Assembly: GCA_035473115.1 (NCBI GenBank)
Contig: DATION010000005.1
Coordinates: forward strand, 4,399 to 68,398
DNA: 64,000 bases
Reading direction: 5' to 3'
Origin: Candidatus Udaeobacter sp.
GTDB lineage: Bacteria; Patescibacteriota; Patescibacteriia; Magasanikbacterales; GWA2-37-8
Each line of letters begins with the position of its first letter. The first letter of the stretch is position 1. The translations under genes and the position numbers were made by a program. The notes beneath the pieces are model-generated. The model was not told the origin of the DNA and did no database searches. It saw only the letters and a list, made by a program, of their open reading frames with translations. Of the stretch, positions 10,646-60,371 are shown one piece after another.

Positions 10646-10648
10646 TAC

Positions 10649-10676
10649 CAGTCATTATATACTACGGTATATAATG
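10649..10676. promoter_or_regulatory. Perfect 12-bp inverted repeat (GTCATTATATAC-TACG-GTATATAATGAC) in the divergent rseP/lemA promoter region
   Basis: Seen directly in the sequence. It embeds a TATAAT-like hexamer. Confidence 0.4.
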
Positions 10677-10788
10677 ACCTCGTTCAGACAAGTAAAAATA
10701 AATTCTTACTTATCACTCACTTCGGATATTATATAGTAAGATTATAAAAAAGCCAATAGGAATATTTAATTCAATAATTTAAAGGAAT

Positions 10789-14785: not shown

Positions 14786-14896
14786 CAAATCATTATTGAT
14801 TTTTGCAGCGGCCATCGCACCCTCAGATGGGTGCCTGCAGGGCATTTGCCTGTCCCCTTTAGGGGGGCTGCCAGAAAATTAATAATAATTAATTAT
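14786..14896. repeat. Palindromic repeat family 2, copy A (core TTTTTGCAGCGGCCATCGCACCCTCAGATGGGTGCCTGCAGGGCATTTGCC with AT-rich inverted flanks)
   Basis: The core recurs at 40598-40681 and inverted at 24652-24735. Nested stems GCACCC/GGGTGC and TGCAG/CTGCA. Lies between two minus-strand genes. Confidence 0.7.
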
Positions 14897-16257: not shown

Positions 16258-16335
16258 AAAAAAATTATAATTGACTTTTTAGCTTAAATTAGTATATAAT
16301 AAGCAACATAATGAGTCAAAATTTAAACTAAAAAC

Positions 16336-19841: not shown

Positions 19842-21071
19842 ATGTCTCTCTCTAAAAGAATCCTGTTAATAATATCTTTTCTCGCTCTTGTAGGCCTGAT
19901 TGGCTATGGATTATATTTTATTTTTACTAGTACTGGCAAAATTGGCCAAGCTCCGCAACTGCCAGCTGGCAATATTACCACCACCGGGCAACTGCCGGTT
20001 TCTGGCCATGCGCCATCAACTACCCCTGGCACAACCAGAGGGCCAAATGGTGAAATTCTGCCAATATCGGGTGTTATCGAAACTACCACTCCGTCTTACT
20101 ATAAACCGGATGCTGTTAAACAGATTACCTCAGAAACCGCCATCTACCCATCTTTAAACACCGGCGGTGACCTCAGATTTTACAATGCAAACAATGGTAA
20201 ATTTTACCGAGCCATGCCCAGCGGCGAGATTAAAACTCTGTCCGATCAAGTATTTTATAACGCTCAAAAAGTTACCTGGGCAAAAAACATAAACGAAGCA
20301 GTTATAGAATACCCGGACAATTCAAAAATAATTTACAATTTTGACGCCAACAAACAGGTAACTTTACCAAAACATTGGCAAGATTTTTCTTTCTCGGCAG
20401 ACGGCGGCCAGATTGCAGCCAAAAGTATTGGCACAGATCCATCCAACCGCTGGCTGGTAATAGTTAATAATGACGGCACCGGAGCTAGGCTAATTGAACC
20501 AATGGGAGATAATGCCGACAAAGTTACCGTAGATTGGTCACCTAGCCAGCAGGTAGTAGCTTTTTCTCAAACGGGCGCTCCCCAAGGCGGAGAAAGACGC
20601 GAAGTTCTTTTTGTTGGTTTAAACGGAGAAAATTTTAAATCAGCTATCGTCGAAGGATCCGGATTTGAACCGAAATGGTCAACAACCGGCAAAAAATTAT
20701 TATATAGCGTCTACAGCGCCGGCAGTGATTTTAAACCAGAGCTATGGCTAGTTGACTCTTACGGCGACAGCATTGGCGATAATCGCCGTTTACTAAAACT
20801 TAACACTTGGGCGGATAAATGCACTTTTAGCAATGATGACACTGCCTTTTGCGCTGTCCCTAAAAATCTGCCGACTGGCGCGGGCATGTCTCGCGATATT
20901 GCCGCCAACAATTATGATGATTTATACAAGATAGACTTAAAAACCGGCTTAAAATCCCCTATTCCTCTAAACAGTAACTACAACATTACCAATATTTCTT
21001 ACGACCCTGGACATAATAAGATAATTTTTACCGATTTAAATAAAACCGGTGTTTTTGAGTCGCAACTCTAA
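19842..21071 (+). CDS. Membrane-anchored TolB-like beta-propeller (PD40/WD40-like) protein
   Basis: N-terminal TM, a Pro/Thr-rich linker, and repeated DWSP/FSADG beta-propeller-like segments. Confidence 0.5.
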   Translation: MSLSKRILLIISFLALVGLIGYGLYFIFTSTGKIGQAPQLPAGNITTTGQLPVSGHAPSTTPGTTRGPNGEILPISGVIETTTPSYYKPDAVKQITSETAIYPSLNTGGDLRFYNANNGKFYRAMPSGEIKTLSDQVFYNAQKVTWAKNINEAVIEYPDNSKIIYNFDANKQVTLPKHWQDFSFSADGGQIAAKSIGTDPSNRWLVIVNNDGTGARLIEPMGDNADKVTVDWSPSQQVVAFSQTGAPQGGERREVLFVGLNGENFKSAIVEGSGFEPKWSTTGKKLLYSVYSAGSDFKPELWLVDSYGDSIGDNRRLLKLNTWADKCTFSNDDTAFCAVPKNLPTGAGMSRDIAANNYDDLYKIDLKTGLKSPIPLNSNYNITNISYDPGHNKIIFTDLNKTGVFESQL

Positions 21072-21155
21072 ATTATATAAACTAAAAAGTTTATATAAAC
21101 TCATTCGCTCGGAAATAATTTGGCAAGCTAATTATTTCACTCACTCATTTCGCTT

Positions 21156-21800
21156 ATGAAAAAATTTTACTTCCTATTTCTTCTTGTGGTAATTATGGCC
21201 GGTTTTCTTTTTTATAAACAAATTATTCGCGCCCGGCAAATCACTGTTCACCGAACTACCGCGCCTTTAATATCCAATAATACCACTTTTATAGCAGACT
21301 CCGGCTCTCAACAGACCCTGGGCAACCCCGGAGCAGCTTTGACAGTAGTTGAATTTGTCGATATCAGCTGCGCTCGCTGCCTAACTTTGCATTCAGCCAT
21401 AAAAGACTTCACTACCAAGCACCCTCAAGACATTCGCCTTATTTGGAAAGATGATCCTAAGCCTGGAGTATTATCAAACTACACTCTGGCTCATCAAGCT
21501 GGTTACTGCGCCGGTCAACAAGAAAAATTCTGGCAGTTCCTAGATGCGGCAATCAGCCAACGCAACGATCTATCCGAAACGGGTTTGAAAAAAATTGCTT
21601 TTAGTTTAAATTTAGATTTAGACAAATTTAGCCAATGCCTCAATAGCCCGACCACCAAACAAGCTATTGCCGACTCGGTTCAGGCTGCCGACCAATTAGG
21701 CATCAGATCTCTGCCGGCAATTTTTGTAAACAACAAACTAATCAATACTGACAAAGAAGTAAATATTGAACAGATGCTGGGAAACTTTACCGCCAAATAA
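21156..21800 (+). CDS. DsbA-like thioredoxin-fold thiol:disulfide oxidoreductase (CxxC = CARC), membrane anchored
   Basis: Signal/anchor followed by an ISCARCLTLH CxxC motif. Confidence 0.75.
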   Translation: MKKFYFLFLLVVIMAGFLFYKQIIRARQITVHRTTAPLISNNTTFIADSGSQQTLGNPGAALTVVEFVDISCARCLTLHSAIKDFTTKHPQDIRLIWKDDPKPGVLSNYTLAHQAGYCAGQQEKFWQFLDAAISQRNDLSETGLKKIAFSLNLDLDKFSQCLNSPTTKQAIADSVQAADQLGIRSLPAIFVNNKLINTDKEVNIEQMLGNFTAK

Positions 21801-24651: not shown

Positions 24652-24735
24652 AATAGGTGCTAATTTTTTTGTTTCCAAATGCCCTGCGGGCACCCTCCCG
24701 AGGGCGCGATGGAAACTGCTAAAATTGGCACCTAT
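24652..24735. repeat. Palindromic repeat family 2, copy C (inverted orientation) flanked by the 9-bp IR AATAGGTGC/GCACCTATT
   Basis: Its core CCAAATGCCCTGCGGGCACCCTCCCGAGGGCGCGATGG is the reverse complement of the copy A/B cores. The element is 84 nt, the same size as copy B. Confidence 0.65.
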
Positions 24736-27670: not shown

Positions 27671-29419
27671 TTATTCAATCACTCTAAACACTTCCGAAAC
27701 AGTAGTAATTTTTTCTAAAGCTTTTAATAACCCATCCTGCACCATAGTCACCATCCCGCTTTTAACAGCTAGTTCTTGAATAGCATATTCAGAAATTTCA
27801 GCGCTCAGTATGGCTTGTTCAATTTCTTTGTTCATCGTAAAAATTTCATAAATACCTACTCGGCCTTTGTAGCCTAAACCACTGCATTCTTCACAGCCTT
27901 TACCACGATAAAAATGCAAATTTTTTAAATCAACATTTTTCTTTTCTACTGCCGGCAAAGCTTCTAGATTTTTCTTTACCCGCTCCATCTGCTCAGCTGT
28001 GAGCGTTTCTTCTTCCTGACAATATGAACAAATTTTACGCACCAAACGCTGGCCAATTACCGAATTTAAAGCTGGCGCTAGTAAAAACGGCTTTACGCCC
28101 ATAGACAAAAAACGTGGAATAGTTCCCGAAGCGCTATTGGTATGAATGGTAGATAAAATCAGATGGCCAGTTAAAGCGGCTTGAATAGAAATTTCAGCAG
28201 TTTCTAAATCACGGATTTCACCAACCATACAGATATCCGGATCTTGACGCAGCAAGCTGCGCAGACCTTTGGCAAAGGTATAATCATGACTATAATCCAC
28301 CTGGCTTTGATTAATGCCTTCCATTTTAATTTCTACCGGATCTTCTAAGGTAATAATTTTAACACCAGGTTTATTCAAGGTTCGCAAAATTGCATACATG
28401 GTAGTGGTTTTTCCCGAACCAGTCGGACCGGTAGTAATTACCATGCCATTAGGCCGCTCAATTTCTTTTTTCAATTTGGCATAAACATCGCCGCGCAACC
28501 CCAGCTCATCAAAAGTGACTCCTTTTTGGCCGCTATGCAAAATTCTCATTACTACACTTTCACCAAAAACTGTCGGCATGGTGGAGACACGGATATCCAA
28601 GCTGCCAGAAGATAATTTTAAAGTTACTCGCCCATCTTGCGGCCGGTCAGTGATATTTATTTTTAAAGCTGCTAATAATTTGATGCGGGAAATAAATTTT
28701 TTCCATTGTTCTTTGGGCAAAGTTGCGACGTCGTGTAAAACGCCGTCAATACGATAGCGCACGACAATGCCGTTTTCTTCAGCTTCCACATGAATATCAG
28801 AAGAATCTACCTTTAAAGCCGAAGCGATCATTAAAGTCAAAATATCGCTAATAGAAATATTAGCAAACTGTTTTTCTAAACTTCTAAAATCAACCACACC
28901 GGCCTTGAACTTTTCCAGTTCTTCATCAGTAATATTGATATCTTTACTGACCGGTTTAACAATGGGCAAATTAGCATAGAGTTTTATCGCTTTAGCAAAG
29001 CTATTTTCCGAAATTAAGCATATCCCAGCCCGCGCATGATGCCTTTCGCCAATTTGATAAGCCAGCTCTTCAATTTCATTATTGTAATCCACACATCCTA
29101 AACGAATTTCTTCAGGCGAACTAAAAAAACAGATGATCTTTTTTTCTCTGGCTAAATCTTCCGGGATTATTCTTAAAGCTTCAGAACTAATCGGCAAAAC
29201 TGCTAAATCAATATATGGCAAACCAAACGCAGCTGCCTGTTTGGCCACCACTTCTTCTTTGGTCCGCAGATCAATTTCCTGAATTTTTTTAGCAAACTTT
29301 TCCGGAGCATTATTATTGCCATTAGAATTATTAGCGCTTGCTCCAGACGGAGGTACACCTACTACTGGCTTCTTGGCAGATTTACCAAGCAAACTATTGA
29401 TTGAAGGAAAGTCACTCAT
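27671..29419 (-). CDS. pilB: Type IV pilus / type II secretion assembly ATPase (PilB/GspE family)
   Basis: N-terminal GSPII_E domain, Walker A TGPTGSGKTTT, and a C-terminal Cys tetrad. Confidence 0.85.
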   Translation of the reverse strand: MSDFPSINSLLGKSAKKPVVGVPPSGASANNSNGNNNAPEKFAKKIQEIDLRTKEEVVAKQAAAFGLPYIDLAVLPISSEALRIIPEDLAREKKIICFFSSPEEIRLGCVDYNNEIEELAYQIGERHHARAGICLISENSFAKAIKLYANLPIVKPVSKDINITDEELEKFKAGVVDFRSLEKQFANISISDILTLMIASALKVDSSDIHVEAEENGIVVRYRIDGVLHDVATLPKEQWKKFISRIKLLAALKINITDRPQDGRVTLKLSSGSLDIRVSTMPTVFGESVVMRILHSGQKGVTFDELGLRGDVYAKLKKEIERPNGMVITTGPTGSGKTTTMYAILRTLNKPGVKIITLEDPVEIKMEGINQSQVDYSHDYTFAKGLRSLLRQDPDICMVGEIRDLETAEISIQAALTGHLILSTIHTNSASGTIPRFLSMGVKPFLLAPALNSVIGQRLVRKICSYCQEEETLTAEQMERVKKNLEALPAVEKKNVDLKNLHFYRGKGCEECSGLGYKGRVGIYEIFTMNKEIEQAILSAEISEYAIQELAVKSGMVTMVQDGLLKALEKITTVSEVFRVIE

Positions 29420-29431
29420 AAAAATTTGTGC

Positions 29432-30397
29432 CTACTTACCGAGCATGTGTTTAAAAAAGTGAATCACTCGGCTATTAATTCCTTCTTTGTGCATTTTAAC
29501 AAATAAAAATACCCAGGCGCTCGTGGTGTAAGCGTTAAAAAATCCGGCTATTAAAACAATTAATACTACCCATAGAAAAACTCCGACCGCAAAACCAACT
29601 GCAGCCAAAACAACCAAATTAGTAAGACCAGCCAAAAGCCAAATTAGCACAGCCGGTAAGAAAGCAAAAAATGCTGCTACTATAGCGGCGATAAGTAATA
29701 AAAAGTTAAGCAGCATTAATAAGACGCCTACTTCCAAAGAGACGAGCAAATGCTGGGAAAATATATTGTAGGCTTTGGCAATTGCCGCTTTAAACCCTTT
29801 GTTATCTATAACTAAAGCGCATAAGGTAAAAATAAAGATCACGGAAACAAACAAAGATACCAATAAAACCACTGTCAAAGCAACCGCTAGGCCTAAGCTC
29901 CAAATAAAGTTGGGCGAATAAATAAAATTTTTAAATACCAGCCAAAATAGAGCTAACAATAAAAGCAGAAAAGCTTGTCGAAGTACGTTTACCAAAAGAA
30001 TGCTCCAAAAATTTTTCAAGCTTCGTCCCCATGGTTTGGAAAGTTTGGGGTGTTTTTTGGTTTGCAGCCATTCGGACGCATAAAAAATAAGCGCCCCTTG
30101 AGAAGTGACCGCTAAAAAAATTAAAAAAATAACTATTGATAAAACTATACCTGCCAACCAGACAATTCCTAGAGTACTGCGTACATCACCCGACCAATTT
30201 AAGTTAATTACGGGTAAAAAAAAGTTGGTTTGTCCGGCCAAAGTTGTTTCCAACATGGCCCAAATTTTTCCAAAAATATCGCTAAATCCAAATTGGCCCA
30301 GCAAAACTGAGAATAACCCCAAAATCCATAGGGCTTTGTTGTGCCACACAACATCCCAAGCGTGGGAAAGGGTCTGGCGATAAGTTGGCTCTTTCAT
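29432..30397 (-). CDS. Polytopic integral membrane protein of unknown function
   Basis: At least 7 hydrophobic helices. No motif recognised. Confidence 0.5.
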   Translation of the reverse strand: MKEPTYRQTLSHAWDVVWHNKALWILGLFSVLLGQFGFSDIFGKIWAMLETTLAGQTNFFLPVINLNWSGDVRSTLGIVWLAGIVLSIVIFLIFLAVTSQGALIFYASEWLQTKKHPKLSKPWGRSLKNFWSILLVNVLRQAFLLLLLALFWLVFKNFIYSPNFIWSLGLAVALTVVLLVSLFVSVIFIFTLCALVIDNKGFKAAIAKAYNIFSQHLLVSLEVGVLLMLLNFLLLIAAIVAAFFAFLPAVLIWLLAGLTNLVVLAAVGFAVGVFLWVVLIVLIAGFFNAYTTSAWVFLFVKMHKEGINSRVIHFFKHMLGK

Positions 30398-30570
30398 ATA
30401 CGAAATGAATGAGAGAATGAATAGCTTGCTGATTCATTCTCGAATGAATGAGTATATATGGGCTTTAGCCCATATAATGAAATGAGTGAGCGAAATGATT
30501 AAATGTGTTTAATCATTTTCGAACGAATGAGAATATATCTTAATATAAACGAAATGAATTCAGTTTATTT
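30398..30570 (-). promoter_or_regulatory. Repeat-dense leader/upstream region: five copies of CGAA(A/T)GAATGAG-like 12-mers interleaved with three distinct palindromes
   Basis: The palindromes are GAATGAATAGCTTGCTGATTCATTC, TATATGGGCTTTAGCCCATATA and AATGATTAAATGTGTTTAATCATT. The unit ends immediately before the ATG of the 29432-30397 gene. Confidence 0.5.
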
Positions 30571-30587
30571 ATTATACCATAAAAAAC

Positions 30588-30626
30588 AAAATCCCCCCAA
30601 AGTTGGGAGGATCTGTTTTTCAGCTT
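30588..30626 (-). terminator. ftsH terminator hairpin (GATCCTCCCAAC/TTGGGGGGAT) followed by a T-run on the minus strand
   Basis: Seen directly in the sequence. Confidence 0.5.
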
Positions 30627-30627
30627 G

Positions 30628-32460
30628 TTACTCTCTCGGCCCTAAAATACGATTAATATCTTCTTGTTCAATTGTTTCTTTTACCATTAATTCTTTAACC
30701 ATCTCGTCTAGCTGCGTGCGATGCGAATCTACAATTGCTTTGGCTTTCTTCTCAGCTTCAGCCAAGAAAGCGCTTACTTCCTTATCAATAGCTTCGGCAG
30801 TTTTTTCGCTGTAATCCTTTTGCTCAGATGAACCGCCGCCTAAAAAAATTGCTTCCTGATGATCACCAAATGTGCGTGTTCCCAGAGAGCTCATACCATA
30901 GCGAGTGACCATGCCTTGAGCAACTTGAGTAGCATTTTTTAGATCAGATGACGGACCGGTAGAAATCATTTCCTCGCCAAAAATCGCTTTTTCCACTACA
31001 TAACCGCCCAACATCATGGCTAATTCATCTTTGAACTGTGCCAAAGTATGATAATACTTGTCTTCAGTCGGCATTTTAAGAGTATAACCACCGGCGCTGC
31101 CGCGAGATATTACGGAAACTTTACGGACCGGATCGCAATGAATAGAATAATGACCGACAATCGCATGGCCAGCTTCGTGATAGGCAGTCATCTTTTTTTC
31201 TTGCTCGCTGATAACGCGATTTTTTCTTTCCGGACCAAGCAAAACTTTTTCAATACTTTCTAAGATTTCTAACTCACCAACTTTTTTCAGGCCGCGGCGG
31301 ACAGTTAAAATTGCCGCTTCATTTAACAAGTTAGCCAAATCAGCTCCGGAAAATCCGGGTGTGCGTTCGGCAATTTTGCGCAAGGAAACTTCCTCAGCCA
31401 AAGGTTTATTTTTAGCATGAATGCCTAAAATTTCTTCACGATCTTTTATATCAGGCAAATCCAGAGTTACTCGTCTATCAAAACGGCCTGGTCGGAGCAA
31501 AGCTGGGTCAAGCACATCCGGACGGTTGGTAGCAGCGACCACAATTACTCCCAGATTAGGGTCAAAACCATCCATCTCCACCAAAATTTGATTTAGAGTC
31601 TGCTCTCTTTCATCATGACCTCCGCCCATACCTGTGCCGCGGCGTCTGCCTACTGCATCAATTTCATCAATAAAGACAATCGCTGGAGCATCTTTTTTGG
31701 CTTTACTAAACAGATCACGCACGCGGGAAGCGCCCACACCCACAAACATTTCCACAAATTCGGAACCAGACATATTGAAAAACGGCACATTAGCTTCTCC
31801 GGCTACCGCTCGAGCTAATAAAGTTTTTCCGGTTCCCGGACTGCCGACCAGCAATACTCCTTTAGGAATTTTGGCGCCCATTTCAGTAAACTTTTTTGGA
31901 TCTTTTAAGAAATCAACTATTTCGACTAATTCTTGTTTGGATTCTTTGGCTCCGGCCACATCGGCAAAAGTTTTTTTGTTTTTATCATCTGGCCCAGTCT
32001 GGCGCGGATTACTTTGGCCAAAGCCCATGGCTTTATTATTCATACCTTGCACGCCGCGAGTCATGAAGTAAAAAAATAAAATAAATATAGCCAGTGGCAG
32101 TAATACCGGCAATAAGTTAGCCAGCCAAAACTTCCACGAGCTCTCGCCTTTAACTTCGATAGATAATTTGCTTAAAGAAGAACTGGTCACGCCATAACTT
32201 CTGATAATTTCGCCAAAAGTTCCGTTTGGTTCTTTTAAGACAGTCTGCTGCTTTGCTTTTTCGTCTTTTAACTGCAAACTTAGATTATCTCCTTGGATAA
32301 TAACCTTATTCACCTGCTCAGCATTTATTTCTTCTACCATTTTACTGATACTAACTGTTTCTGGAGCTTTATCTTGCTGGTTTTTTATTAACCCCAAAAC
32401 TCCGGCAATCAAAAATAAAGCCAAAAAAACTATCAAGAAATTTTTTAAGAAATTGCGCAT
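30628..32460 (-). CDS. ftsH: ATP-dependent zinc metalloprotease FtsH
   Basis: AAA Walker [12 protein letters not shown] region, and the HEAGHAIVG zinc motif. Confidence 0.93.
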
Positions 32461-32582: not shown

Positions 32583-33794
32583 TTACTTTTTAGCAGCCTT
32601 TTTCTTTTCTTTGGCTGGAGCTTTAGTTTTTTCTTCTTTTTCTTCTGCCTCGGCTGGCGCTTCAACTTTTTCCACTTTTTTCACTTTACCTTTTACACCA
32701 AAAAGTCTTAAACCCAAGCGGTGCTCTGGCGGTTCCAAAGAAACAATTTCAAAGTCAGTAGTCTGGCCAATTTTGAATTTATCACCAATATTGCCAGTGC
32801 CTTCATCGGTAAGTTCCGAAATATGAGCCAAACCATGAATATCCTTATCCAAGGCCACCATCAAACCAAACGGTTCAATCTTCAAAATCTTGCCGGCAAC
32901 TTTGTCGCCAACTTTATATTTATCTTTAACCATCTTCCATGGATCATCTACCAAACGTTTGATGGATAGATAGATTTTTGATCTGTCCAACTGAATAATT
33001 TGCGCTTTAATTCTGTCGCCAACTTTCAAGATATCTTTTGGATGATCAATACGCTGCCAAGCAATCTCGGAAATATGAACCAAGCCTTCTAAGTCCTGGC
33101 CAAACTTTACAAAAGCGCCAAATGAAGTGAGGGCGCTGATTTCACCTTCCACTACATCGCCAACTTTGTAAGATTCTAGTACTGCTTTTTGAGCGTCTTC
33201 CCAAACTGCTTTTTCGGAAACGATTAATTTTTCTTCTTTTTCATTAACATCAATAACTTTTACTTCCATTTCTTTACCGATAAGTTCACGCAATTTTTCT
33301 AAAATACGATTCTTGTCTCCGCCCATAACGCGCGGATAGTGCTCCGGATTTAATTGAGAAACCGGCACAAAACCAGGCAAACCTTCTACCTGTACCATCA
33401 AACCGCCTTTGTTGGCAGCCAAAACTTTGGCTTTGATAGTAATACTGTCTTGCATCCACTTGCGAACATTGTCCCAAGCGCGAGCAAAACCGGCAATACG
33501 GAATGACAATTCCATTTCACCGTTTTCGTTTTCTAATTCCAAAACTGTTGCTTCGACTTCATTGCCAACTTTTAAATTAGCGTATTCTTTAGCTTCACCA
33601 AATAGTTCGCGGCCGCGGACTACACCCACGGTTAAACCTTCAATATCAACATGCACTTCACCTTTGTCGATAGAAATAATTTTACACTTTACCACGTCGC
33701 CAACTTTAGGGATGGTTAAAGCGTATGACGAAAACAAGGTTTTAAAATCTTGTTTTTCTAAATCTTTTTCTTCTGATTTTTCGTGTTTAGTCAT
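32583..33794 (-). CDS. rpsA: 30S ribosomal protein S1 (four S1 domains, Lys-rich C-terminal tail)
   Basis: Repeated S1-domain signatures. Confidence 0.8.
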   Translation of the reverse strand: MTKHEKSEEKDLEKQDFKTLFSSYALTIPKVGDVVKCKIISIDKGEVHVDIEGLTVGVVRGRELFGEAKEYANLKVGNEVEATVLELENENGEMELSFRIAGFARAWDNVRKWMQDSITIKAKVLAANKGGLMVQVEGLPGFVPVSQLNPEHYPRVMGGDKNRILEKLRELIGKEMEVKVIDVNEKEEKLIVSEKAVWEDAQKAVLESYKVGDVVEGEISALTSFGAFVKFGQDLEGLVHISEIAWQRIDHPKDILKVGDRIKAQIIQLDRSKIYLSIKRLVDDPWKMVKDKYKVGDKVAGKILKIEPFGLMVALDKDIHGLAHISELTDEGTGNIGDKFKIGQTTDFEIVSLEPPEHRLGLRLFGVKGKVKKVEKVEAPAEAEEKEEKTKAPAKEKKKAAKK

Positions 33795-33903
33795 AATATT
33801 TTATAAATAACAAAAAAATTTTTCTTATCCTTTTCGGTCAGAACCGAAGCAAGGTTTCTTCCTCTAAATTGGGAAGAATTCACAAATAAATTTTACTGAT
33901 TTA

Positions 33904-33932
33904 AGTATACAATATTAATCTAAATCTGTCAA
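33904..33932 (-). promoter_or_regulatory. Sigma70-type promoter for rpsA (TTGACA, 17-nt spacer, TATACT)
   Basis: Read on the minus strand. It predicts a ~100-nt structured leader containing TTCGGT/ACCGAA and TTCTTCC/GGAAGAA stems. Confidence 0.5.
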
Positions 33933-33943
33933 TACAAACAAAT

Positions 33944-33984
33944 CCCGCCTTCCTCCGAAGAGAAATGGCGGGGCAGGTTTTTTT
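33944..33984 (+). terminator. Terminator-like hairpin (CCCGCC...GGCGGG followed by T7) inside the rpsA/gyrB divergent region
   Basis: Seen in the sequence. Its function (sRNA end, attenuator, or rpsA leader structure) is unresolved. Confidence 0.35.
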
Positions 33985-40597: not shown

Positions 40598-40681
40598 ACC
40601 AATACTGATTTTTGCAGTGGCCATCGCACCCTCAGGAGAGTGCCCGCAGGGCATTTGGCTACAAGAAAATTAGTATTGGTT
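40598..40681. repeat. Palindromic repeat family 2, copy B, flanked by the 10-bp IR AACCAATACT/AGTATTGGTT
   Basis: Core TTTTTGCAGTGGCCATCGCACCCTCAGGAGAGTGCCCGCAGGGCATTTGGC. Lies between two minus-strand genes. Confidence 0.7.
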
Positions 40682-56105: not shown

Positions 56106-56137
56106 AAACACTCCGCAATTACGGAGTGTTTTTTTAT
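56106..56137. terminator. Bidirectional terminator (A7-ACACTCCG-CAATTA-CGGAGTGT-T7) shared by the dehydrogenase gene and the minus-strand rnpB
   Basis: Seen in the sequence. Confidence 0.7.
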
Positions 56138-56510
56138 AGCATAAGCCGAATTTTGTTCCCAATTTTAATCGGGAGATGATCATTTCTCTGGGTTTGGCGT
56201 TGCCACCAACCTCAAGCGAGCGAACTTTTTACCACGCCCTTCGCGAAGGACGTGGCTCTGCTCTTGCGTTCAAGTAAGGATTTAGACGTTTCACCTTTCG
56301 ACTTATTACCTCCATCGAAAGTTAAGCAATATTTTTGATTTCCCAAAAATTTGAGGTTTGCTTTCTCTTTCTTTTCAAAAAGAGACGTTTCTGTTCGCAC
56401 CTCGAGCCTTGCGGCCGACGGGGGTTACCCGCTACCTTTCTCCTTAGTTTTCACCAAGGGAACGTTCGGACTTTCCTCCCTACCAAGTGACAGGGCGATC
56501 ATCGCTATAC
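56136..56510 (-). ncRNA. rnpB: RNase P RNA
   Basis: The minus-strand reading contains GGGAGGAAAGUCCGAAC (P4/CR-I, compare E. coli GGAGGAAAGUCCGGGC), GGAGAAAGGUAGCGGGUAACC (compare GGUGAAAGGGUGCGGUAAGAGC), and a 3'-terminal ACAAAAUUCGGCUUAUGCUAU (compare ACAGAACCCGGCUUAUCGG). P1 pairing AUAGC/GCUAU. ~375 nt, GC-rich. Confidence 0.7.
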
Positions 56511-59171: not shown

Positions 59172-60371
59172 ATGAAAAAGATCGGCATTGATATTCGTTG
59201 CTTAATGTCTCCGCTGCGCGCCGGCGTGGGTGAATATACCCACGAACTGCTGAGCGCTATTTTTAAGCTTGATAAAGAAAACCAGTATTGGCTTTTTTAT
59301 AATTCCCATACAGATGTCTTTGCCCATATTCCACTTTGGTCAGGAAGCAATATTCATTATGTAGCCACCAAATGGCCGAACAAACTATTTAACGCTTTTA
59401 TAAAAATATTTGGCTGGCCAAAACTGGATAAATTAATTTCCCGCAACGGCAAGCTGGATTATTTTTTTTCACCCAACTTTAATTTTACGGCCTTATCCAA
59501 AGATACAAAAAATATTTTAACTGTCCATGATTTATCATTTAAATTTTTTCCACAATTTTTCTCCTTAAAACAAAAATTATGGCACTGGGCAATAAACCCA
59601 AAAAAACAGTGTCAACAAGCCAGTTTTATAATTACTCCTTCGGAAAATACCAAACGGGATATTGTGGATTATTATAAAATCCCAGCAGAAAAAATAAAAG
59701 TTGCGGGCGGCGGTTTATCGGGAATTTTCGTCTGTCATTCTGAGCGTAGCGAAGAATCCCTTAAACCAAGCCAAAGGGATCCTTCGGTCGCTTCACTCTC
59801 TCAGGATGACATACGAAAAAAATATAATTTACCAAATAAATTTATTCTCTGTTTGGGAGCGGTTGAATCGCGAAAAAATATCATTGGCTTAATTGAAGCT
59901 TTTGAAAAATTTTCCAAAACTACAACGGGCTATTCTTTGGTAATTGCCGGCAGTGGCCGAGGCTGGAAAAATAAAAAAATATACGCTCGAGCTTTGGCTT
60001 CACCGCTGCGCAATAATATCGAATTTATCGGTTATGTGGATGCGCAAGATAAGCCAACTCTATACTCTATGTCTGAACTGTTTGTTTATCCAAGTTTTTA
60101 TGAAGGATTTGGTTTTCCGGTTTTGGAGGCCATGGCCTGCGGTGTGCCGGTAATAACTTCTAACCGATCTTCTTTGCCGGAAATTACCGAAGGCGCAGCC
60201 TATTTAATTAACCCCAACCGCCCAGCTGAAATCGCTGCAGCAATTACAAAACTGATTTCTGACACAAAGCTACGAGAATATTTTATAAAAAAAGGACTAG
60301 AGCAGGTTAAGAAATTTAGTTGGCAAGCCGCAGCTCAAAAATGGCTAGATATTTTAAATAAATCAACTTAA
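59172..60371 (+). CDS. Glycosyltransferase family 4 carrying an in-frame palindromic-element insertion
   Basis: EGFGFPVLEAMACGVPVITS. An extra ~27 aa (VCHSERSEESLKPSQRDPSVASL) sits between the two Rossmann halves and is encoded by repeat copy 4. Confidence 0.8.
   Translation: MKKIGIDIRCLMSPLRAGVGEYTHELLSAIFKLDKENQYWLFYNSHTDVFAHIPLWSGSNIHYVATKWPNKLFNAFIKIFGWPKLDKLISRNGKLDYFFSPNFNFTALSKDTKNILTVHDLSFKFFPQFFSLKQKLWHWAINPKKQCQQASFIITPSENTKRDIVDYYKIPAEKIKVAGGGLSGIFVCHSERSEESLKPSQRDPSVASLSQDDIRKKYNLPNKFILCLGAVESRKNIIGLIEAFEKFSKTTTGYSLVIAGSGRGWKNKKIYARALASPLRNNIEFIGYVDAQDKPTLYSMSELFVYPSFYEGFGFPVLEAMACGVPVITSNRSSLPEITEGAAYLINPNRPAEIAAAITKLISDTKLREYFIKKGLEQVKKFSWQAAAQKWLDILNKST
59733..59811 (+). repeat. 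Palindromic repeat family 1, copy 4, inserted in-frame inside the GT4 coding sequence
   Basis: TGTCATTCTGAG...GAAGAATCCCTT...AAGGGATCCTTC...CTCAGGATGACA. Its terminal stems show compensatory changes relative to copies 1-3 (CCGA/TCGG becomes CTGA/TCAG). Confidence 0.8.

Follow-up and report, generated by a model that had tools for sequence, protein, structure and literature searches.

Bacterial genomes can carry short palindromic repeats dispersed between their genes. The repetitive extragenic palindromic (REP) sequences and bacterial interspersed mosaic elements (BIMEs) of enterobacteria are short extragenic palindromes, transcribed with their neighbours, that occur singly or clustered with linker motifs and are patchily distributed between orthologous sites; they are thought to stabilise mRNA and to affect the expression of flanking genes. 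Within a genome, the stems of REP copies fall into one or a few sequences, neighbouring units lie in alternating orientation, a RAYT-type transposase goes with them, and they lie mostly after genes. The pneumococcal BOX element (boxA-boxB(n)-boxC) and the Correia element of Neisseria are modular structured repeats of ~100 nt that lie near gene starts, are co-transcribed and are able to alter downstream expression. The number of their tandem internal modules varies, and the Correia element duplicates a TA target and has terminal inverted repeats. Here we analyse an array of boxes and hairpins that appears closest in kind to such interspersed palindromic repeats. It occupies the minus strand at positions 30398-30570 of a 64,000-nucleotide stretch of contig DATION010000005.1 (assembly GCA_035473115.1, positions 4,399 to 68,398; this whole stretch is termed the window), between ftsH and a gene encoding a 321-aa membrane protein. 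The G+C content of the window is ~40%, and its protein relatives place it in a candidate phyla radiation (CPR, or Patescibacteria) genome of the Magasanikbacteria type.

In structure the array is a tandem of two units, each a modular palindromic element of ~75-80 nt. The order of parts is hairpin 1, box1 (CTCATTCGYTCG), hairpin 2, box2 (CTCAYTCATTTCG), three nucleotides and then an ATG. Hairpin 1 has a constant outer stem, TTATAT/ATATAA, and inner pairs that are GGGC/GCCC, AAAC/GTTT, AGGC/GCCT or AC/GT; hairpin 2 has an A-rich 5′ arm and is variable in sequence. The boxes are spaced by 38-41 nt in most units, the direct-repeat families of the region show a second-order period of 77-79 nt, and a unit-by-unit alignment of the array fits the single units found before dsbA in the window and in the relatives L108 and L006 (L numbers are our handles for loci of related genomes). 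There are 173 nt between the promoter TGGTATAAT and the ATG at 30397, and these hold five boxes alternating with hairpins. An earlier, sequence-only reading had described five boxes interspersed with three perfect inverted repeats upstream of the ATG, placed between the ftsH terminator and the gene start, and on the minus strand that is what we find. The palindromes are indeed perfect, but they measure 22, 26 and 29 nt rather than the 22-25 nt that had been given, and a fourth, weak hairpin of 5 bp had been overlooked. The 5′ arm of the downstream hairpin 1 contains TATATG, the same TATATG that is found around the real start codon. The loop of the downstream hairpin 2, CAGCAAGCT, is common to the dsbA copy (TGGCAAGCT) and to L110 (TAGCAAGCT), with different stems. 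The two hairpin 2 sequences of the array match different relatives, the upstream one (loop CACA) being of the L006 type (loop AACA) and the downstream one of the type found at dsbA and in L110 and L008. Thus two subtypes appear to stand side by side, and a simple recent tandem duplication is less likely.

The region is unusual in its structure. The window contains 19 perfect hairpins with a stem of at least 9 bp, against 3-6 in shuffled sequences, and three of these are packed into 106 nt in the flagged region. The minus-strand leader folds as RNA with -47 kcal/mol (z = -5.6; the opposite strand has z = -4.2). A search for the 12-mer, which the sequence-only reading had proposed, gives a divided answer. 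In its loose form, with two mismatches, the motif is not enriched in the window (10 matches, 10.8 expected), but the 11-mer core GAATGAATGAG with at most one mismatch has four matches in the 64 kb, all of them within the flagged region, where 1.17 would be expected and 3 of 100 shuffles reach four. Elsewhere the motif occurs only within the same module, and the arrangement is conserved upstream of orthologs in some relatives (L108, L006/L060, L063), the opposite of a random motif in an unconserved arrangement. It is the full module, and not the degenerate 12-mer, that is specific.

The module is dispersed within the window. A second copy, a single unit, fills the space between two cistrons, beginning 2 nt past the stop codon of a 409-aa open reading frame (ORF) and ending at the ATG of a gene for a DsbA-like thioredoxin (21156-21800). 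It reads TAA-AT / TTATATAAACT-AAA-AGTTTATATAA / ACTCATTCGCTCG / GAAATAATT-TGGCAAGCT-AATTATTTC / ACTCACTCATTTCG / CTT / ATG, and its two perfect hairpins (21073-21138) were found by the hairpin scan. A third, degenerate copy lies upstream of lemA. The array is not, then, a regulatory invention of its own locus, being two tandem copies of a module also found near dsbA and lemA. In the relatives, the leader of the orthologous 321-aa gene has exactly one unit in L108 (71% protein identity) and in L006/L060 (57%), only the 3′ half of the module in L008/L061, and a unit cut by the contig end in L063. The clpB leader of L110 contains an insertion of ~100 nt ending in ACTCATTCATTTCG-CTT-ATG; the clpB gene of the window is without it. 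Box2 stands 3 nt from the ATG at four independent genes, i.e. the 321-aa gene, dsbA, the L025 gene and clpB of L110. At six of seven independent sites the module has the orientation of the gene downstream, and at the seventh, in the rpsA leader of L197, it is reversed.

A covariance model was made from eight units with the two hairpins given as structure. Besides the dsbA copy (101 bits) it matches 30395-30479 in the array (80 bits), L111/L108, L110, L006 and L063, the space between pilB and the next gene in L025 (70 bits) and, in reverse orientation, the rpsA leader of L197/L198 (6120-6240, 39 bits). At E <=1 the model has zero matches in viral contigs, 740 kb in all, picked for an exact match to either box; the 78 exact box matches in these contigs are all chance occurrences without a covariance-model match.

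Pairing in the stems is maintained while their sequence changes. In the model-fitted alignment 93% of cells are paired, compared with 70% in shuffles and 36-57% with slid partners, figures that are somewhat inflated since an alignment fitted to a structure biases pair counts toward it. Double-sided changes are found in 16 of 19 pairs, and in terms of cells 36 stem changes are double-sided and one is one-sided. RNAalifold applied to a MAFFT alignment recovered hairpin 1 only, missing hairpin 2 because its lengths differ; the structure was then supplied by hand and refitted by the covariance model. The compensation can be seen by eye on comparing GAAATAATT/AATTATTTC in the window with AAAATATTT/AAATATTTT in L110, where the loop is conserved. 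Only 4 of 210 stem pairs are G.U. A comparison of strands gave 4 G.U pairs in the sense and 19 in the antisense direction for the module family, and 66 and 59 for unrelated hairpin leaders; the 19 antisense pairs come mostly from the purine-rich antisense boxes, and no asymmetry between sense and antisense was concluded. Stems that change on both sides and lack wobble pairs would fit either upkeep of the palindrome at the DNA level or a need for full Watson-Crick pairing. Quasipalindrome template-switch correction can keep palindromes perfect at the DNA level, and the likeness lies in the perfect wobble-free hairpins whose arms change together. It is a mutational process, however, and gives no account of the conserved boxes, the dispersal or the conservation between orthologs.

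Filled and empty versions with precise boundaries exist for the lemA, dsbA, rpsA and 321-aa-gene sites. At the dsbA junction the window and L110 have the module, and L111, L112/L113, L192, L193 and L197 are empty, with the genes abutting; L196 has another palindromic element there, of the GTCATTCTGAGC type. The rpsA site is filled by the reversed module in L197 and empty in the window. The closest ortholog of the 321-aa gene, L107 (82%), has no module and an unrelated leader of 75 nt, and about half of the ~80 orthologous loci have a short unstructured leader of 26-40 nt after the same promoter. Further classes of leader at these loci contain AAAGTY, AACAATTAACAA and GTCATTCTGAGC...GGATGAC elements (L003, L027, L109). 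The interval from promoter to ATG of this gene is a hotspot for palindrome formation or insertion. For the L025 copy no clean empty site was found; the relatives carry a promoter-bearing spacer there.

The junctions give some indication of how the module arrived. At lemA the window has an insertion of 74 bp relative to the empty site of L112, flanked by an 8-bp direct repeat, ATTATATA (10654-10661 and 10728-10735), and the first part of the insert repeats 11-12 nt of the older flanking sequence in inverted form, which creates hairpin 1. In the array TATATG is present at both sides of the downstream unit (30476-30471 and 30400-30395), and in L108 the basal leader is intact as far as TTTAT (...CTATTTAT) and then runs into the module. 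This suggests that the module entered at a TAT-ATG context and duplicated it.

Once in place, the copies are well conserved. The dsbA copy is identical to that of L110 at 71/83 positions, compared with 93/213 at fourfold sites of the flanking genes. The downstream unit of the array has 67/80 identities with L108 (fourfold sites 38/89) and 59/77 with L006 (23/68), and L108 and L006 have 68/75 between them (25/65). The hairpin 1 loop is identical in the dsbA copy of the window and in L110. A sliding comparison shows the element to be as conserved as the adjoining coding DNA and to lie outside any special tract of high identity. Since orthologous copies are far above fourfold-site identity despite the turnover of the module, they are kept by selection or by a homogenising process.

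We consider it rather probable that the array represents a dispersed palindromic insertion element present as a tandem pair, similar to REP, BOX and miniature inverted-repeat transposable elements (MITEs) and specific to Magasanikbacteria-like CPR bacteria, which are ultra-small and live in groundwater. The identity as a dispersed palindromic insertion element is well supported; its mechanism of mobility and its effect on expression we infer. The likenesses are drawn from descriptions of the known elements. With REP and BIME the module shares dispersed extragenic copies, at three loci (four units) in 64 kb and at more in relatives, but its stems vary within a genome while its boxes are conserved, the units of the array are co-oriented and start codons are abutted; no RAYT-type transposase was seen, with no search aimed at one. 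With BOX and Correia it shares a small, modular, structured form, tandem units and an intergenic position near gene starts, but it is unrelated to them in sequence and lacks terminal inverted repeats. The absence of such terminal repeats also separates it from MITEs, which it resembles in presence and absence at orthologous sites with precise boundaries. Compared with all these repeats, the conserved parts of the module are single-stranded boxes rather than stems, and it is locked to start codons. We know of no counterpart to the fixed box2-3 nt-ATG register with a role as initiation region in a genome lacking Shine-Dalgarno (SD) sequences.

A mechanism can be proposed on this basis. The module would spread by insertion at the DNA level into TATAT(A/G), as offered by -10-like boxes and by the common TAT-ATG start context, duplicating the target. 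A second insertion into the duplicated target, or an unequal crossover, would then generate an array of the form target-element-target-element-target. Such insertion would account for this arrangement, for the (A)TG that follows each box, for box2 always being 3 nt from the start codon and for the mini-ORF (ATG GGC TAA) in hairpin 1. The sequence-only reading had proposed a multi-hairpin 5′ leader, and this is very probable, as the leader follows the conserved TGNTATAAT extended -10 element located 8 nt after the terminator. TGNTATAAT or TGNTATACT is found upstream of the ortholog ATG in nearly all of the ~80 orthologous loci, and transcription is predicted to start near 30564. Since the whole array lies downstream of this conserved promoter, it should be transcribed as a 5′ untranslated region of ~165 nt. 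Hexamers resembling a -10 element (TATACT, TATATT, TATAAT) occur at the junction of hairpin 1 and box1 in five of eight copies, but an internal promoter was rejected there; they lack the TG extension typical of promoters in this lineage and are expected by chance in TATA-rich stems. Across the window, most promoters are of this extended -10 type (TGNTATAAT) and are followed by short leaders.

Within the transcript the chain of hairpins would bury the duplicated upstream AUGs, while the C/U-rich, G-poor boxes between them would stay single-stranded and the last box would serve as the initiation region. The ensemble prediction places the array's three upstream AUGs in strong stems (P(unpaired) <=0.06) and leaves the real start region weakly paired (mean 0.49-0.64 over -12..+5). 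A subgroup of Parcubacteria is reported to be without an anti-SD motif (PMC9297842), and in the window only 2 of 40 genes (ORFs >=150 aa) have an SD-like motif; 32 of the 40 have T at -1, and the upstream regions are A/U-rich and G-poor. In so SD-poor a genome the choice of start site should depend on local accessibility. Box2 was considered as a substitute for the SD sequence, but this was dropped because the whole genome is without SD motifs. In structural modelling, box2 of the downstream unit, CTCATTCATTTCG, may form a G-poor translation-initiation region, with its UUCAU able to pair with AUGAA of the start. At dsbA the module breaks the ancestral coupling of stop and start codons (TAAT-ATG in L111 and L112), and the N-terminus of DsbA is three residues shorter; we infer that the module must allow independent initiation there. 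Effects on mRNA stability and on accessibility of the start site are likely, and a role at the level of the RNA or the gene is suggested by the co-orientation of six of the seven sites, the fixed register of box2 with the ATG and the position downstream of a conserved promoter.

A number of points weigh against an insertion element. Target duplication is clean in the lemA case alone; in the AT-rich start contexts it is short and could be coincidence, and sites other than lemA and the array have only 4-5 nt of AT-rich similarity. No transposase, recombinase or other mobilising function was identified in the window or the related loci. The ends of the module, TTATAT... on the left and ...CTCAYTCATTTCG on the right, are not inverted repeats of each other, so that it is no classical MITE. 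Perfect stems with hardly any G.U pairs do not tell structure in RNA from structure in DNA. In the prediction the genuine AUG is in part paired as well (P(unpaired) 0.10 in the window). Moreover, the conservation between orthologs exceeds what a selfish element needs and points to a function for the host, and from the co-orientation of most sites it may be the RNA that matters.

A fuller picture can be drawn that would reconcile insertion with function, though we regard it as doubtful. The module could be a 'leader cassette', a small, non-autonomous, start-codon-seeking element of CPR bacteria lacking the anti-SD motif, that would insert at TAT-ATG or TATA with target duplication and bring its own G-poor initiation region in the form of box2 and the AUG spacing. 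Its hairpins would neutralise the duplicated start codons, and an array would lengthen as the element inserted again into a target that it had itself duplicated. Genes could lose their coupling to upstream cistrons and be newly equipped to be translated independently, with the copies then coming under purifying selection in the host.

It is unlikely, in our estimation, that the module is instead a dedicated cis-regulatory RNA leader without mobility, acting as a platform for a protein or the ribosome, or as a mask of the start codon sensitive to cold or heat. Selection would keep it before genes of the envelope and proteostasis (the membrane protein beside ftsH, dsbA, lemA-htpX, clpB); the single-stranded boxes would be recognition sites, and UCAU of box2 would pair with AUGA of the start codon. 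The conservation far above fourfold sites, the covariation of both hairpins with conserved boxes and hairpin 2 loop, the constant 3-nt register and the prevalent co-orientation all accord with this, as does the fact that the genes served are all envelope or proteostasis genes, although this set is too small for a test of enrichment. A pairing of 4-5 bp between UCAU and AUGA with a 7-nt loop is predicted recurrently in most copies. It is all that compares with RNA thermometers of the ROSE or fourU kind, and the genome offers no SD sequence to be sequestered. By the usual criteria for a structured regulatory leader, strong covariation and the register of box2 are set against one reversed copy in an rpsA leader, the lack of a wobble signature or of any sense/antisense asymmetry, and the absence of the module from the same genes in the closest relatives. 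The lemA copy lies upstream of sequence conserved with the empty site and not beside the ATG, and in other lineages unrelated palindromic elements occupy the very same sites.

A DNA-level array for binding of protein is still less probable, and indeed we give it little credence. In this explanation the boxes, ~39-41 bp apart, would be direct-repeat sites bound by a transcription factor or a nucleoid protein, which would act on the promoter as a roadblock or an activator, and the palindromes would be operators or cruciform spacers. The regular 38-41-nt spacing in most units would suit it, perfect Watson-Crick stems without wobble are expected if both DNA strands matter, and the predicted transcript enters the array at about its position +3. 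Yet the palindromes vary in sequence from copy to copy with their pairing kept perfect, so their sequence is not what is read, and no single dimeric factor could read them; the 'operator palindromes' of the sequence-only reading are accordingly unlikely. All five boxes are downstream of the -10 element, most copies are intercistronic or abut a start codon and not a promoter, none of the adjacent genes is for a regulator, and the motif was not found at other promoters in the 64 kb.

The array has a superficial resemblance to arrays of guide RNA. It is not a clustered regularly interspaced short palindromic repeat (CRISPR) array, as the sequence-only reading had rightly said: CRISPR repeats are near-identical and ~23-47 nt long, whereas those here are 12-13 nt and degenerate and the intervening segments are self-complementary, perfect palindromes. 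No Cas family match was found in 23 ORFs scanned, and the flanking genes in the window, which is part of the genome, are ftsH, the membrane protein, the pilB-type ATPase, recG and rpsA. TIGR arrays (from tandem interspaced guide RNA) have 5-15 dual-repeat units of ~36 nt, each with an edge repeat, a 9-nt spacer A, a loop repeat and a 9-nt spacer B (PMC12045711). Box D (UG) and box C (CCA) bound the two independent spacers, a Nop-domain Tas gene adjoins, stem-loop variants carry variable palindromes, and such systems are common in CPR bacteria (PMC12045711; bioRxiv 10.64898/2026.09.09.750476). Short repeats (8-12 nt in TIGR, 12-13 nt here) alternating with variable segments of ~9-12 nt in a unit of 38-41 nt, or ~39 nt, come close to this, and with their frequency in CPR bacteria this makes TIGR arrays the most tempting comparison; but the array fails every defining feature of TIGR tested, and processing to small guide RNAs can be dismissed with near certainty because the two 'spacers' of each unit are perfect complements of each other and are kept between species in orthologous copies, the hairpin loops of 2-9 nt are too small for spacers, the 'loop repeat' is unconserved (AA, CACA, CAGCAAGCT, TAAG) over only four units, there are no UG...CCA box D/C motifs, single units elsewhere precede start codons, no Nop-domain gene was found in ORFs within ~15 kb of any of the three copies, and none of the 23 ORFs scanned around them has a Nop or Cas domain.

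The module can be recognised by its signature, and a covariance model already sets the family clearly apart from background. Uses of the model could include annotating leaders, avoiding false calls of small ORFs and of CRISPR or TIGR arrays, and tracing strain variation in groundwater metagenomes. CPR genomes are usually described as small and poor in repeats and regulation, yet here there are at least three families of small palindromic element in 64 kb, one of which sits exactly at start codons in a lineage essentially without SD-guided initiation. If the module delivers or shapes the initiation region it would give a handle on start-site choice in uncultured bacteria, and it would show how operons are rewired, as in the uncoupling of dsbA from its upstream gene. 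A literature search of incomplete coverage yielded no description of such repeats in CPR bacteria. The coordinates of the parts are collected in Table 1.

Table 1. Features of the array, its surroundings and the further copies of the module in the window.
Feature	Positions	Strand	Remarks
Intrinsic terminator of ftsH	30589-30614	-	11-bp stem then T-run; terminator at the same place in orthologous loci
Extended -10 promoter TGGTATAAT	30571-30579	-	Perfect extended -10, directly after the terminator T-run
box0, GAATTCATTTCG	30550-30561	-	Remnant resembling box2; L006 has the homologous CTTACATTTCG in this position
Weak hairpin 1, upstream unit (TATAT-TAAG-ATATA)	30534-30547	-	5-bp; degenerate TATAT..ATATA hairpin, G+C core lost
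box1, upstream unit, CTCATTCGTTCG	30520-30531	-	
Hairpin 2, upstream unit	30493-30518	-	11-bp arms, 4-nt loop CACA; like L006 hairpin 2 (loop AACA)
box2 of upstream unit = box0 of downstream unit, CTCACTCATTTCA	30478-30490	-	
Hairpin 1, downstream unit, TATATGGGCT-AA-AGCCCATATA	30455-30476	-	10-bp arms, 2-nt centre; conserved in L108 and L006
box1, downstream unit, CTCATTCATTCG	30441-30452	-	
Hairpin 2, downstream unit, GAGAATGAAT-N9-ATTCATTCTC	30413-30441	-	10-bp arms, 9-nt loop CAGCAAGCT
box2, downstream unit, CTCATTCATTTCG	30401-30413	-	Followed by TAT and ATG at 30397-30395; 3 nt from ATG
Gene for 321-aa multi-pass membrane protein	29432-30397	-	No Pfam family; conserved in Magasanikbacteria
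PilB-type ATPase gene	27671-29419	-	Next after the 321-aa gene
Second module copy, single unit, before dsbA	21066-21158	+	Intercistronic; covariance-model match 101 bits; orthologous copy in L110
Third, degenerate module copy, upstream of lemA (10789)	10646-10730	+	37 bits, E = 0.0005-0.002; not in seed

On the minus strand the order of genes is rpsA (32583-33794), ftsH (30628-32460), the terminator, the array, the 321-aa gene and the PilB-type ATPase gene. Upstream of rpsA (33795-33945, minus strand) there is a consensus TTGACA-17-TGTATACT promoter and a leader of ~110 nt with hairpins of its own (cttcccaatttagaggaag; ccttgcttcggttctgaccgaaaagg), possibly an S1 autoregulatory leader. Downstream of the 321-aa gene, between it and pilB, L005 (3974-4062) and L011 (3273-3361) have an element with a weak match to the covariance model (19-23 bits). 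It is composed of a GAAGC..GCTTCG hairpin, a AAAAAGAAAAT-ACA-TTTTCTTTTTT hairpin and ACTCACCCC...ATG, and is possibly a distant member of the module family.

Leaders of the 321-aa gene are bimodal in length, being either ~30 nt or 80-170 nt. Many loci without the module have unrelated long hairpins between promoter and ATG (L058 1403-1500, L030, L088, L020, L078, L089, L015/L100, L056, L062). The arms of these hairpins consist of a short motif in tandem followed by the inverse run, such as AACTAAC six times in L058, TAAAGTYNN four times, and AACAATWTAAC...

A second palindromic element of the window lies at 59734-59810 (plus strand), in frame within a glycosyltransferase-like ORF (59172-60371) to which it adds ~26 residues. 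The protein reads ...GIF-VCHSERSEESLKPSQRDPSVASLSQDD-IRKK... and the DNA GTCATTCTGAGCGTAGCGAAGAATCCC...GGGATCCTTCGGTCGCTTCACTCTCTCAGGATGAC, and the position is reminiscent of the in-frame palindromic elements of Rickettsia. In relatives, members of this family fill other sites, namely the leader of the 321-aa gene (L003 and L027), the junction at dsbA (L196) and the spacer ahead of pilB (L197). A third dispersed repeat, AATGCCCTGCRGGCACCC then ...GAGGGYGCGATGG, is intergenic at 14829-14846 (minus), 24678-24695 (plus) and 40638-40655 (minus), with 0.02 occurrences expected, and is found again in the inserted clpB leader of L110 (3070-3105). It is G+C-rich and hairpin-forming, and in a scan of the whole window it is below every Rfam gathering threshold. 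That scan returned only RNase P RNA and two tRNAs, and permissive scans of 30300-30700 and 21030-21200 gave nothing near threshold. The RNase P RNA (56132-56508, minus strand) scores 105.6 bits, just above the gathering threshold of 100, consistent with the reduced structured RNAs reported in CPR bacteria.

At clpB a conserved AGTCAAAA(T)TTT comes after the promoter (TTGACT-17-TATAAT) in the window (16270-16335, plus strand), in L110 (2975-3030) and in L192 (1185-1255), which could be a candidate operator for a CtsR-like heat-shock repressor. Finally, NCBI gives the source metagenome-assembled genome the label 'Candidatus Udaeobacter sp.' and several relatives that of 'uncultured Gammaproteobacteria'. 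Synteny and every protein relative lead instead to Magasanikbacteria (Patescibacteria), and thus the bins with those labels look mislabelled.

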